Counted from the stretch's first letter, positions 3,374-56,906 are shown. The stretch is 64,000 nt of DNA from Amoebophrya sp. A120 (GCA_905178155.1 CAJINV010000014.1:2265923-2329922), one strand, 5' to 3'. Notes: generated by a model not told the origin, from the letters alone. Numbers and translations: made by a program.

Positions 3374-6300
3374 TCACACCTTCTGTTCCCGCAGCATCTT
3401 CAGCAATTCCTCCTCGATCTCCTTCACATTCTTATTTTCCTGCCCCACATTCTCCGCCTCGAGTTTGGCCACCGTCTTCTTGAAATCAGTGTCCGCCCGC
3501 TTTTGCCGGAAATCTGCCACCTCTTTCGCCACCTCGACGTCCCCGCCTCTCGATAGCTTGTCTGCTTCGATTTTTGCCGACGTGGTGCTGGTGCCATTCA
3601 CATCATCAGCTGCTACAACACCTTTACCGGTCGATTTCTTAAAGAAATCGTCTGCCCCCCGTAAAGCTGAGTACTTTTTGTACAGCGATAGGTAAAATTG
3701 CTCACTCTTCGCATTCTGCTCCATCGCGTCTGTTGTTGAAAACGAACCCGTAGTAGTTGCACCACCCCCTTGTGGTCGAGCCCCACTTTGACCACGCCCA
3801 CCACGGTCATCATCTGCCAAAGAACTAATTTCCGAGGGGTCTCCGGATAAAAACTTCCCGAGCCGCTCCTTTTTTCCGCCGAAGCAGTGGTTCAAAAGAA
3901 ATTGCTGTCGCAAATACTCAGCCGTAATTTTTCTACGCGGGAAGGCCTGGCCCCTGTGTGGAGATGAAGAGGCAGTGGCGGCGTGGTGTAGTTTCACCTG
4001 TCCTTGTTTTCCTGATCCCCCTTCGAATTGTTCACCTTTTATTCCCACAATCTCCCTCGGATCCCGGAAGCTTTCGGGTAGAATCAAAGCGGACGGGCCG
4101 TCTTTCTATCAACAGAAAAAAACCCTAACCCATCCACATCCATTTTTTGCATGACAAACACAGGATTTGATCTGATGTATGTTAATGCTTTGCATGACAA
4201 ATTGGATGCGGATGGGTGTTTTTTCCTGGATACTTTCGCCTGCAACCCAATTGCAGTCAGCCGCTTCCGAAACCGACGGCTGATATGGATTGCAAAAGTG
4301 TCTTGGTCTGGAAGAATGCAGGAGTTTTTGATGCAGATTTTGCGTGACCCATGAGGTCGGTGATGCATGCCCTAGCATCAGAGATTTTGCGAGGGCTTTC
4401 TGATGCTCATACTGCGTGAGAAATGCCCTCTCCGCGTAGCACAAATTGCACCTCTTTTGCTGTTCATGCAATACAGTTTTTATGTGGATTCCAAAAGTAG
4501 CATCACAAGTTGTATCCTTCCAGACCCAGACATTTTTACATTTGATAGCTGAGGGTCTCAAACGACTCGGACTGTTCGACCAGCAGTTTGTGCTCTTGGT
4601 TCAACCTCGCCTGGTTGTAGAGCTGCAGCACGTCCTTCTTGTAGTCGTACGAGGGCCTCGTGTCCGAGTCCGGGTTGGACCTGTGGTCATAGAGCGGCTC
4701 GGCGAAGACGGCGTTCATAATGTTAGATCGGAAGAGCGAGGAGATACTGCGGCTACTTGTTGTGCTGGATAATTGAGACGTAGACGCAGGCCGCGCGTCA
4801 GGTTTTGATCGGTCTGGAGCAGGGGGTGCGTCAACCTCCAGTTGCAGTGCTTGCTCAATGATGTCTTCATCTTCGTCGTCTAGATTTCGAGTGGGCGCAT
4901 CATCGCTTTCGTCTTCAACGTCAAGAAAGCCAGCGCCGGCTGTTTTGCGAGGTGGTAAGAAATTCCTGATTGGGCTGCTCCTGCTCTTCCGCGTCTCCAA
5001 TTCAAATTTTTCCATCCTGCCACTCATTCCGATTGCCCGCTTCAGCGATCCACCTAATTGTCGCTGCATTTTGGTCAGCCCGGTCAAGGAGCCAAGACCG
5101 TGGAGGGAGGTATTCGAGGTCGGGAATGTCGTAACGTTGTTGTAGATGTTGTTATTGAAAAACAGCGCGCTCTTCTGCAGGCTCTTCCGTGTACCGAAAA
5201 CGTTGTTACCCAGGGAGAGCAAATCGATATTGCTAGTGGCGCCTATCAGCTTCGGATCGGTAAGAGCGGCCAAGCGCTGCTCCAACATTTTTGCGTGGAC
5301 GGAGGCGGGGCCTATAACATCATGCGTCGTAGTTGATCTCGACGCTGTCGCGGTTTTCTTCTGCGGCTGCGCTCCCTCTGGACTGCTGGTCGCGTGTTCC
5401 CCCTCTCGGTTAAAGGTAAAGCTTTGGAGGTTTTTGTGATGTTGAAACAACGGCGATCGCTGCGGAAGCTCGTGATCACCACGTCGAAATTTCTTGGAAA
5501 CCGCACACTTCTTCTTGCTCCTTCTACTTGTTTCTGTGTCATCTTCGTCAATGACAGCACGACCACCTGTTGCATGTGCACTCGCCAAACTTTTTTGCAC
5601 GGCCAACAACAGCAATAGCCCGTGGTCCTCTGGTGCAACTCGGTTCGCGGCCCAGGGAAACAAGAAGTCGGCGAGCTGCGAATAGTCAGTGGCCCTCCGC
5701 CGGTGCGAGTCGTGCGCCTCGCCTCCGGCAGGGGAAGCGCCAGAAGAACTTCCTCCCCCGCGCCCTGTTGTCGCCTCCTTGTCCTCTTTCGGTTGATCTC
5801 TGTCTTCCAAACCCCTAAACACCGCCTCGACTCGTAGCAACCCTTGGTCTCGGGAAAGCAGCTTTAAGACGAACAGCATCGCGGCACAGACGGCCTCTTT
5901 CTCGCTTTCTGAAATCGGCTGCCCTGGCGCGTGTGCGTTCTTCTTCTCTCCGTCGTGTCCGCCTTTTACAGTCGCAGGGCTTCTAGTAGATGGCGCATGA
6001 AGCCGCGATCCAAGCTGCTTGCTAGCCTCCTCCTTTACCTCAAGAAATCGCAAGTCGAATACATCATCGAGAACATCACCAGCTGCGGCTGGAGGATCTT
6101 CTTGGTCGAGAGCCCCATCGCTCGATTTCAAGAAGATCCCGGGTGCTTGCAAGAACAGATCTCCGAGCGGGTAGGAGGTATGGCGACGCAGAGTGAAGGA
6201 GTCTGAGCCGGTAGTTTTTTCAAACCCGATTTTCTTCGTGGGAGATGCCGGAATTGAGGCCGGGTAGGGGTACTTGTTCTCGCCTTTGTTGCCGCTCGGT

Positions 6301-54800: not shown

Positions 54801-56906
54801 AACCTGACACGTCCATAGTTCTCGTTCTGGAAGTAGATGTCCCGCACCTTTCCCTTCTTCGCCTCGCCCCACTCCGGGATAAACACCGCGTCCACTTCCG
54901 TTTTGTTCAGAAATTCGCTGTGGATCTTTTGCTTGTAGAGGGTTTCTTTATCCTTGATAGTACCATCGCCGTCTTTGTCGCTCGTCGTTTCCTTCGAGGT
55001 CGCGGCGGTGGAGGTGAAAAAATCGTTGTCCACCGCTTTCGTGCACGACACAGAGGGTTTCACATCCGAAACAGCAGTACTGCCCGTGGCGAACACCGGA
55101 CACAGGCGCGCATCCGCGTCTTCCAAGGACTTCACCTTTTTCGCGTTTTCGCTGCTCAAAAACTCCCCGATCTTCGGCTCCTTGCCGGAGAACATCTGCA
55201 GGCAAAACCGCGCGCAGTTTCCCGGCTTGCCGCAGAAGGCGTTGCTGCTGCCCGGCGGGTTGATCGTGCAGGTTTTGTTTTCCAGCCCGTCCGGGGGACA
55301 GGACACCACCGGCCAGATGGACAGGAAGGACGCGGTTCCGGACAAGGCGTCGGTACCGCCGGCACAGGCGATGATGCAGATCATCTGGTCGGTATCCAGG
55401 AAAAAACACCCATCGCCATCCCCATCCATGTTTTGCATGACAAACACTGGAGCTGATGCATGTTTTGCATGACAAATTGGATGGGGACGATGTGTTTCTG
55501 TTTTTTTTTTTTTGTGGATAGTCGGAGGTATTGTAGTACTTCAACACCTCGCCGAGCTTCTTCGGCTGCTTGTGCGCGGAACAAATCCGCACCTGCGTGG
55601 AGATGTTGTGCTTCGCGAACGATTTCGCGAACTCCTTCTGCAGTTTCTCGATGTGCGGCGCGTCCGAGTCGGACCCGGCAAAGATGCAGGCGAGGCCAGA
55701 CGAGAGGTACTTTTTCGCGACCAAATTCTGCAACAGCCGCTCCTTGGGCGACTTGTTGATCACCTGCGCCTTGTCCGGTAACGGGAACTTCTTGCCCGTG
55801 ATCTGCTCGCAGACGTCGATGTAGCGCTTCGCGCACTCCAGCACCTGCTCCGGCGTCAATTCGATCGCCTTGGTGGCGGTGGTAGGGTCGAATCCCATTT
55901 CCAACAGCGTGTCCCGGACGTACTGCTTCGAGAACTCCTTCACCTTCAACTTCGGATGTTCCTTCAGCAAGGCGGACACAGAGGGGTAGTCCTTGATCTT
56001 CGGTTCGATCAGCTTCCACTTCTCCTCGTACTCCGCAATGCTGCACAGACGGCTGCTGTCCGGCGTGTTCACTTCGTCGATCACGTGCAGCTTGCCGGTC
56101 TTGGGGCAAATCCCAAACTCGTACTTCGTGTCGATCAAAATCAGCCCCTGCTTCGCCATCGTCTCCTGGCCGCGCTTGAACAGCTTCATCGAGATGTCTT
56201 TGACCTGATGTAGTTTTTGCGCCATGTACTTCTAACAGCGACTTCTTGTTGATGCAGTTGTAGGTAGGACCACGTAGTCAGAGCCGACTTGTTATTTCTT
56301 TTTCGAAATTCCTAAACTCCTGCTTTATCATTTTACATCGTAGGATGACAAAATCTTGAGCATCGTGTGCTCCGTAGTTCCTACCTGCGCCGCCAAATCC
56401 TTCCCGATCAGCTCCTCCACTTCCGCCATGGTCATGTTCTCGTCGTGCCCCACCTCCGCCTTCGTGGTCGGCGTGAAGATCGGCTCGGCTAATTTCTGAT
56501 ACCGCACCAGCCCGTCCGGGATTTTCAACCCGCAGAAGTCCCGATCCCCCTTCTCGTACGCAGCCGCCATGGAACCCCAGAGATAGCCACGGACGATGCA
56601 CTCCACCATCAGATTTTTCATCTTCTTCTGCACGACGACCGCCGGGTCGGGCGAGGGGAGAACGAGGGCGTTGGGGATGATGTCCTTGGTCACCTCGAAC
56701 ATGTGCTCGGAAATGGTGTTCAGCACCTGGCCCTTGAACGGGATCAGATTCGGAAGGACAAAATCGAACGCGGACACACGGTCGTTGGTAACCATGACAA
56801 CGTCATCCTCCTGGAAATAAATGTCGCGGACCTTGCCTTTCTTCGGAAAACCCCACTCTGGCAACACCACGGCGTCGAGGCCGTAGTTTAGGAAAGACGC
56901 ATCCAT
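51843..56906 (-). CDS. PAICS: Tandemly duplicated SAICAR synthetase / AIR carboxylase fusion (PurC-PurE-PurC-PurE, ~1068 aa), 10 exons
   Basis: PurC motifs [66 protein letters not shown] and PurE motifs GSDSD, SAHK, PVVSCPP each occur twice. Exons approx. 56906-56385, 56204-55521, 55387-54818, 54504-54466, 54310-53894, 53738-53614, 53407-53237, 53006-52963, 52709-52427, 52194-51843 sum to 3207 nt. Two GT-AG introns (56205-56384, 52195-52426) and seven introners. Confidence 0.95.
52715..52962. mobile_element. Introner-like element / non-canonical intron (248 bp), family B
   Basis: TIR TATCAA(A/C)TGCA(A/G)ATATGTCTG, perfect TSD TGTAC. Junction CSYRY|IKVYET. Confidence 0.93.
53012..53236. mobile_element. 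Introner-like element / non-canonical intron (225 bp)
   Basis: TIR TATGACAGTGCACAACTCC with further similarity inwards, perfect TSD ATTTC. Junction [11 protein letters not shown]. Confidence 0.93.
53413..53613. mobile_element. Introner-like element / non-canonical intron (201 bp)
   Basis: TIR TATGCAA(CG/TA)GAAATTTCAATTT, perfect TSD CCGCA. Junction DSSRMCG|IEEYE. Confidence 0.93.
53744..53893. mobile_element. Introner-like element / non-canonical intron (150 bp), family D
   Basis: TIR core TGCAAAAGTATCGTACT, perfect TSD GGATC. Junction [15 protein letters not shown]. Reverse-complement homolog of 54316-54465. Confidence 0.94.
54316..54465. mobile_element. Introner-like element / non-canonical intron (150 bp), family D
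   Basis: Perfect 24-bp TIR TATCCTGTGCAAAAGTATCGTACT, perfect TSD GTCGA. Junction [14 protein letters not shown]. Confidence 0.95.
54510..54817. mobile_element. Introner-like element / non-canonical intron (308 bp), family C
   Basis: About 30-bp TIR TATGG(GG/AC)GTGTCAGG(A/T)TTGAAATCGTCAAA, TSD GCTCT/GTTCT (4/5). Junction [14 protein letters not shown]. Confidence 0.92.
55393..55520. mobile_element. Introner-like element / non-canonical intron (128 bp), family A
   Basis: TATCCA...TGGATA ends, perfect TSD GTCGG. Junction [17 protein letters not shown]. Confidence 0.93.

Follow-up and report, generated by a model that had tools for sequence, protein, structure and literature searches.

TAT…ATA introners of Amoebophrya sp. 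A120 are skipped as one nucleotide, the element and four nucleotides, probably by a spliceosome with relaxed ends

In a stretch of 64,000 nucleotides from Amoebophrya sp. A120 (CAJINV010000014.1:2265923-2329922 of assembly GCA_905178155.1), called the window below and numbered from its first letter, short elements that begin with TAT and end with ATA interrupt genes and other transcripts. These elements, the A120 introners, are likely non-autonomous DNA transposons with 5-bp target site duplications (TSDs) and are skipped as one nucleotide plus the TAT…ATA element plus four nucleotides, here the “1+4” register, a removal that is probably carried out by a U2-type spliceosome with relaxed demands on both intron ends. 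All host frames of the window are on the minus strand, and its elements and introns are given for that strand.

All 2,448 TAT…ATA pairs of 60 to 600 bp in the window were scored for a 5-bp flanking repeat and for the match of their terminal inverted repeats (TIRs) over 20 positions, with 100 block shuffles as the control. A perfect TSD combined with a TIR match of at least 12/20 was found at 15 elements, compared to a mean of 0.04 and a maximum of 1 in the shuffles, and a gapped search supplied three further elements with decayed repeats, at 54510, 36186 and 34761, in which 4, 2 and 1 of the 5 TSD positions matched, respectively. All 18 elements of 126 to 341 bp, spanning 4107 to 55520, that a first-pass annotation had named from the sequence were recovered in this way. 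Their TIRs matched at 12 to 20 of the 20 positions, and the 15 perfect TSDs all differed in sequence. The motif TAT-N7-AAA was present at one end or more of 14 elements and at both ends of 11, and GT/GC-AG ends were impossible in all six registers that a 5-bp repeat allows for 16 of the 18, both in agreement with that annotation. Two additional perfect-TSD pairs, 18736-18962 and 53434-53660, had TIR matches of 7 to 8/20 and were rejected as chance, about four such pairs being expected; 14 more weak TAT…ATA candidates in the window were left uncounted. Short, non-coding, bounded by TIRs, flanked by a TSD of constant length and present in many copies, the elements have the anatomy of MITEs (miniature inverted-repeat transposable elements).

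RNA-like evidence was taken from Logan contigs of four runs (X1 to X4) from one sample and one study, the RNA status of which is a guess. They were compared with positions 25300-37300; a second stretch, including the gene for PAICS, was compared with X1 and with the DNA-like run X5, and the joints cited for it are from the 15 listed of 711. All five elements of the first-pass annotation in 25300-37300 were skipped as the element plus 5 nt. This was the case in three of the four runs for element 4 (25889-26049, 161 bp, perfect TSD; joint 25883>26050, 166 nt) and element 5 (26107-26427, 321 bp, perfect TSD; joint 26101>26428, 326 nt), and in all four for element 6 (34761-35101, 341 bp; joint 34755>35102, 346 nt, one shared base), element 7 (35412-35663, 252 bp, perfect TSD; joint 35406>35664, 257 nt) and element 8 (36186-36361, 176 bp; joint 36180>36362, 181 nt, one shared base), the last of which has GT-AG ends in the 1+4 register. 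For element 18 (55393-55520, 128 bp, perfect TSD), one X1 contig omits 133 nt (55521>55387), which brings the elements with a joint to six of the 18, elements 4 to 18 being within the two stretches. The use of nearby GT-AG sites instead, which that annotation had named as an outcome that would contradict it, was not the case at the joints seen. Elements 4 and 5 interrupt RNA that has no long open reading frame (ORF) and is likely non-coding, which indicates that removal is independent of the reading frame.

The contigs of X1 to X4 are likely transcripts and behaved as spliced RNA: they skipped four GT-AG introns (five joints) and left 29310-30111 uncovered in all four runs. Both observations speak against excision of the elements from DNA in some cells, in the manner of the internal eliminated sequences of ciliates, in which case the skipping contigs would be DNA or its transcripts. 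Short elements bounded by TA, the guessed RNA status of X1 to X4 and the possibility that a rare excision joint occurs among the 711 of the second stretch would fit such an event. The DNA-like run X5 had a depth of about 45 in each of the 30 bins of the second stretch, and its contigs passed from the flanks into the elements at a depth of 41 to 45, the level of the flanks themselves; excision from DNA is regarded as the least probable of the explanations considered.

A hairpin combined with a direct repeat is an anatomy that yields template-switch artefacts of reverse transcriptase. If the joints were such switches, they would be “falsitrons” (PMC8240250), and all RNA evidence used here does come from contigs derived from complementary DNA. 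Two joints share no base, however, and four share only one. Retention of the elements would also break PAICS, with stops inside 17 of the 18 elements and a frame shift, TSD included, in 17 of 18, and the PAICS ortholog of strain A25 runs through all seven element sites. An artefactual origin of the joints is highly improbable on these grounds.

Where the TSD is perfect, the cut may slide over six positions, and the register can be read only at copies with decayed repeats. In the 12 kb compared with RNA-like runs alone, five further decayed introns of the TAT…ATA type were present in addition to the list of 18, which contained only real elements but was incomplete, and all five had non-canonical joints in four of four runs. 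At two of them, 27032-27212 (element 27036-27211, repeat gone, CT..CT ends) and 27447-27660 (element 27451-27659, CT..CG ends), the joints 27031>27213 and 27446>27661 share no base, and the intron is one nucleotide, TAT…ATA and four nucleotides, an arrangement that would arise by chance about once in 4,000 per joint if base frequencies are equal. A cut 0 or 1 nt before TAT is allowed at elements 6, 8 and 17, a cut 1 to 5 nt before it at 26743-26911 (element 26747-26910, TSD 4/5; joint 26742>26912), which rules out a cut directly at TAT, and a cut 1 or 2 nt before it at 35934-36150 (joint 35933>36151), which starts G-TATC and ends ACA plus 4 nt (GT..TT), a TAG 4 nt beyond this end being unused. 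One nucleotide before TAT is the sole offset common to all informative joints. In this register, all 11 non-canonical joints have T at +2, A at +3, A at −7 and A at −5, for the six listed elements partly by construction. Where decayed repeats make it readable, the cut resolves to 1 nt + TAT…ATA + 4 nt. Removal requires neither the repeat nor GT/AG. The earlier claim of precise removal from RNA was upheld in that the element plus 5 nt is skipped; the boundaries are not defined by the TSD, and copies without a repeat are cut at the same place.

The 1+4 register predicts the terminal classes of non-canonical introns that Farhat et al. 2021 list in their Table S4 (PMC7789003): the nine predominant classes of A120 are all NT-NN and the nine of A25 all TT-NN, with T at +2 in all 18 although the TIRs of the strains differ, that of A25 starting one base earlier than that of A120. 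The text of that paper sees no clear signature, and the legend of its Fig. 3 describes the place of splicing with respect to the hairpin as variable and the border as unknown. In Gozashti et al. 2025 (PMC12130899), the origin of the splice sites differs among A120 families (23 of the 58 rows covered), some co-opting both sites, some carrying the 5′ and others the 3′ site, with TSDs of 2 to 5 bp. Such family-to-family variation is expected if the register was left unfixed. The rule itself was not found in the literature searched, outside of which lay Roy et al. 2023, the figures of the papers and two of the 14 supplementary files of Gozashti et al.; these may bear on its novelty, and the figures of Farhat et al. 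may show part of it.

A larger set of copies was used to examine the terminal bases. One TIR pattern led to at least 132 loci, those listed all being from one assembly, and L001 to L131 of these were used for the statistics; this assembly is related, is not established as A120 and does not overlap the window. The listed loci contained 295 non-redundant short perfect-TSD elements, 180 of which received a strand call and 115 of which were dropped because they had none, with calls conflicting within a locus in 11 of 143 cases. Among the 180 strand-called copies, G occurred at +1 in 49, against a mirror count of 48 (P = 1.0), and AG at the 3′ end in 18, against 13 (P = 0.47), so that no selection for G at +1 or for a 3′ AG was seen in these young copies. 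GT-AG ends were possible in 13 and impossible in 167 of them, and the codon phases of the copies were 57, 70 and 53. Of the ten joints in the window that do not end in AG, eight have an AG no more than 7 nt from the 3′ cut, and it is not used. The C>T/G>A direction in 43 of 60 imperfect TSDs was uninformative for reading the register from DNA alone.

What the 5′ end retains is U at +2 and A at +3, which are common to the canonical donors here (five of six begin with GTA) and to A25, and this argues for the spliceosome. The spliceosome would recognise N-U-A(-U) as the 5′ site, which is the GUA core of canonical donors minus its G. The 3′ site may be measured from AUA instead of AG, for which a branch adenosine at −7 or −5 would suffice; these positions are suggested by one case, in which the 3′ cut follows ACA with both adenosines kept. 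The TIR hairpin would join the ends in young copies and would not be strictly needed in old ones: in four of five old copies the predicted terminal pairing probability was 0.04 or lower, yet they were skipped. A120 is reported to retain U2, U4, U5, U6, U2AF, SF1 and SLU7, a review lists a U1-70K homolog in A25, and Fritillaria borealis offers a precedent for an adapted U2 spliceosome (PMC13326754). A connection of TAT with the preference for U at +4 of the donor reported for lineages without SNRNP27K, a protein (snRNP27) reported as not detected in A120, is not supported, as none of the six canonical donors here has T at +4.

The same elements in the same register may alternatively be processed outside the spliceosome, by a ligase and a structure-guided nuclease that would set the cuts at distances of 1 nt and 4 nt from the foot of the TIR stem. 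Such a route has been proposed for euglenid introns, and euglenid and diplonemid introns have been described in this manner (PMC11282704, PMC12621601). Strong hairpins (a folding z not above −4 for 16 of the 18 elements, versus −1.6 to 0.9 in six canonical introns, one of which was entered 3 nt off register), a fixed geometry relative to the stem, terminal bases without selection and a U1 small nuclear RNA (snRNA) that is reported as undetected in A120 are consistent with such a route. This explanation does not agree well with the old copies that are skipped in spite of little predicted terminal pairing, with a joint that abandons the paired site for an N-T-A site, with a T at +2 that is kept in both strains despite the different TIR offset, or with intermediates having GT..AG, GT..CA and GT..TT ends that share the 1+4 register. 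It is considered rather unlikely.

The joint that abandons the paired site is that of the intron at 30991-31255 in a Methyltransf_16 gene. Present in all four runs, this joint (30990>31256) gives an intron that ends in ATA plus 4 nt but begins at C-TAAC, which is located 11 nt to the outside of the A-TATC site paired in the TIR. The predicted pairing probability is 0.00 at the N-T-A site that is used and 0.97 at the TIR-paired site that is not, which suggests that the 5′ site is chosen by sequence at this intron. The frame ends about 20 codons on, and the TIR-paired site would restore it. An in-frame form (30990>31245) may exist, since contigs drop rare forms; an annotated form of this gene that could settle the frameshift was searched for and none was found. 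As this intron shows, old copies are not spliced productively in every case.

Evaluation of removal by a relaxed U2-type spliceosome needs to consider several points that weigh against it. The undetected U1 snRNA does not favor the proposed role of the spliceosome; Rfam gave zero matches in the window, and no snRNA was found there. The strong folding of young elements would hide the 5′ site, which would fit a structure-guided nuclease. A joint is shown for only six of the 18 listed elements, seven joints inform the register and two of these are unambiguous, and 30990>31256 departs from the TAT rule in its 5′ end and puts the gene out of frame. The RNA evidence consists of contigs of guessed RNA status from a single sample, with no raw reads of the strain mapped; the raw RNA runs X8 and X9 mapped 76 and 1 reads, respectively, to the TIR only and were uninformative. 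As to the transposon part, a transposase was found neither here nor in A120 by Farhat et al., who argued against transposase-driven spread (PMC7789003).

The gene for PAICS (51843-56906) encodes a tandem PurC-PurE-PurC-PurE protein of 1068 aa and is interrupted by two GT-AG introns and seven elements. A 179-aa exon in the window was 100% identical to a 1068-aa Amoebophrya sp. A120 protein, the A25 ortholog reaching 82%. Removal of the seven elements, each with 5 nt, and of the two introns yielded 1068 of 1068 annotated residues, and a run of 776 consecutive identical residues spans all seven sites. As evidence, the annotated protein depends on RNA-based annotation, whereas the A25 ortholog, which aligns through all seven sites, is independent of it. 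The sites correspond to residue 857 for element 12 (52715-52962, 248 bp), 843 for element 13 (53012-53236, 225 bp), 786 for element 14 (53413-53613, 201 bp), 744 for element 15 (53744-53893, 150 bp), 605 for element 16 (54316-54465, 150 bp; 84% like element 15 and in the opposite orientation), 592 for element 17 (54510-54817, 308 bp, TSD 4/5), where an X1 contig keeps 54818-55387 and no other letter, and 402 for element 18. The first PurC-PurE copy contains one element and the second six. The internal tandem duplication is also present in A25 (1093 aa), most other matches being about 500 aa long.

Deletion of the element plus 5 nt opened the frame at all 16 elements in coding genes, as had been claimed, and the match to the annotated protein was added at the seven PAICS sites. 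Outside of PAICS and 25300-37300, these are element 1 (4107-4232, 126 bp, perfect TSD, predicted intron 4103-4233), where a frame of 341 aa opens and which belongs to the family of element 18, element 2 (4284-4547, 264 bp, perfect TSD), element 3 (9904-10091, 188 bp, perfect TSD, weak TIR), element 9 (38206-38511, 306 bp, perfect TSD), for which GT-AG ends are possible in a 2+3 register, element 10 (38584-38836, 253 bp, perfect TSD), a member of a high-copy family at which an X1 contig piece ends at 38837 and continues elsewhere, and element 11 (40473-40754, 282 bp, perfect TSD), where an X1 contig piece ends at 40755. The TIR of element 10 (38584-38617) received 75 reads of X8 with varied flanks and on both strands, the rest of X8 being unmapped; these reads may come from a related element in the RNA of another strain or in carried-over DNA.

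The host transcript at 33243-37118 has three GT-AG and four non-canonical introns and an open frame of 571 aa after the RNA joints. In 25300-29153 (minus strand), an ORF of about 150 aa (28575-29024, no Pfam match) precedes more than 3 kb of RNA that is spliced at five non-canonical introns and is apparently non-coding. A contig beginning in the latter region was 14,088 nt long, which hints at read-through along a one-strand gene cluster. At 31976-31978, a GT-AG intron has tandem alternative acceptors 3 nt apart, the two forms being present in two and one of the four runs. Elsewhere in the window, a protein kinase extends over two long ORFs at 59412-63559 (minus strand) with a short gap near 61817-61874, and a raised summed depth with variant contigs in X1 and X5 at 45395-46700 was attributed to a different repeat family, for which the scans made gave no sign of the TAT type.

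The elements are repeated in the genome as families. The window contains five related pairs, three of them inverted relative to each other; the summed depth in X5 reached about 1.5 × 10^5 on elements versus about 45 on the flanks, and the TIR pattern was found at the 132 or more loci mentioned above. A 5-bp TSD fitted 176 of 241 strong-TIR pairs in the listed loci. The motif GCATVACAAA, on either strand, is common to otherwise unlike families: 21 of its 22 hits in the window are in 11 of the 18 elements, which make up 5.8% of the window, and the last is in one of the extra introns. It occurred in 198 of the 295 copies of the listed loci, often about 40 nt from an end, and its strand relative to the gene was not biased (95 versus 81). 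This distribution would suit a site bound by a transposase more than a signal for splicing. A single trans-acting DDE enzyme, most likely integrase-like, would move all families.

No transposase domain was found in the 16 ORFs searched of the 203 in the window, in agreement with the first-pass annotation, in 135 ORFs of at least 230 aa from the listed loci or in the nine ORFs of a 2.9-kb copy. The search for long elements with the same TIRs and an ORF, as proposed there, yielded long copies in the listed loci, the best of which has no Pfam match in its nine ORFs. This copy (L065:6261-9200, 2940 bp) belongs to the family of elements 1 and 18, has a perfect TIR of 43 bp and a 5-bp TSD, is inserted in a host frame and contains internal palindromes and short tandem repeats. 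Other long copies were found in L028 (972 bp), L108 (652 bp), L078 (1384 bp) and L065 (1045 bp). Perfect TSDs enclosed 15 spans of more than 500 bp; L132 accounted for three, and neighbouring elements paired by chance for most of the rest. Among the viral hits, L132 is an AT-rich phage contig that matched by chance, and L132 and L133 were excluded from the statistics. The best lead to a transposase is family 38 of Gozashti et al. 2025, a Ginger-like family of about 808 bp with TIRs, Copia/Gypsy-like ORFs, a 5-bp TSD and TA/TA termini (PMC12130899), to which no sequence link from these copies was made.

With a transposase neither reported in A120 nor found here, the elements may be removed by the spliceosome as proposed but spread through RNA, by reverse splicing or retroposition. 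The constant 5-bp TSD, the TIRs and the presence of both orientations in one gene do not agree with this, and the ends of the element, at TAT and not at the preceding base, are located inside the ends of the intron, which points to a staggered cut at the DNA level. Spread through RNA is very unlikely.

Elements of this class and in this genome are already known, having been described from A120 by Farhat et al. 2021. The first-pass annotation, which had cited that paper for a similar class, was right as to the class; the relation is more than resemblance, as the elements and the organism are identical in both. The A120 introners of Farhat et al. have terminal inverted repeats of 8 to 20 nt or more with a motif of TAT, 7 nt and at least three A, direct repeats of 3 to 5 nt (5 bp in the example), RNA-supported removal, a hairpin, a high copy number (about 29,850 repeated introns) and no transposase (PMC7789003). 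No difference from the elements of the window was seen, and what is added here is the fixed 1+4 register. The predominance of classes that are only NT-NN in their Table S4 agrees with it; the passages covered neither state the rule nor contain GCATVACAAA. The A120 families of Gozashti et al. are likewise mostly TIR DNA elements (PMC12130899), and introners are reported to be confined to part of the genus.

Among other systems, euglenid and diplonemid introns share ends other than GT-AG, a TIR stem placed at a constant distance from the cut sites, TSD-like repeats and a proposed MITE origin (PMC11282704, PMC12621601), and the title of a cited paper describes release of euglenid-type introns as circular RNA. 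The euglenid pairing of +4,5,6 (CAG) with −8,−7,−6 (CTG) is absent here, where the stem pairs +2 with −5, and the 5′ end here keeps the +2U/+3A of canonical donors. MITE-derived introns of Fritillaria borealis are attributed to an adapted U2 spliceosome, as proposed here (PMC13326754, PMC11282704); they have AG-AC or AG-AT ends, with U1 kept and U2AF duplicated, whereas the terminal dinucleotides here are free except for T at +2. The A120 introners also differ from canonical U2 introns with GT/GC-AG ends, as the unambiguous joints are CT..CT and CT..CG. Ginger elements (Bao et al. 2010, PMC2836005) share TIRs and would provide an integrase-like enzyme, and TDD-4/5 give 5-bp TSDs; they have TGTNR termini, which do not occur here, and mostly a 4-bp TSD with target preference, in contrast to TAT(C/G) termini and 15 different TSDs.

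Taken together, the data allow a wider proposal, held tentatively and at slightly less than even confidence. All TAT…ATA introners of A120 would be cut as N|UAU…AUA-NNNN by a spliceosome that does without G at +1 and a 3′ AG, with the 3′ cut set by a branch adenosine in the TIR. The TIR would be both the transposase end and a two-way splice signal matched to the 5-bp TSD, the TTA ends of A25 would have arrived independently at this +2U/+3A core, and all families would be moved by one enzyme that binds GCATVACAAA.

More than 60% of the introns of A120 are removed without GT-AG, and the fixed 1+4 register is a handle on how this is done, as it names an exact 5′ site, an exact 3′ site and two candidate branch adenosines. 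Because 1+4 equals the length of the TSD and each TIR has TAT at its start, removal of a new insertion can be scarless in either orientation and from any target. This explains why insertion may cost little whatever the sequence, orientation or codon phase involved. A single rule of this kind would allow re-annotation of thousands of ambiguous junctions in A120.

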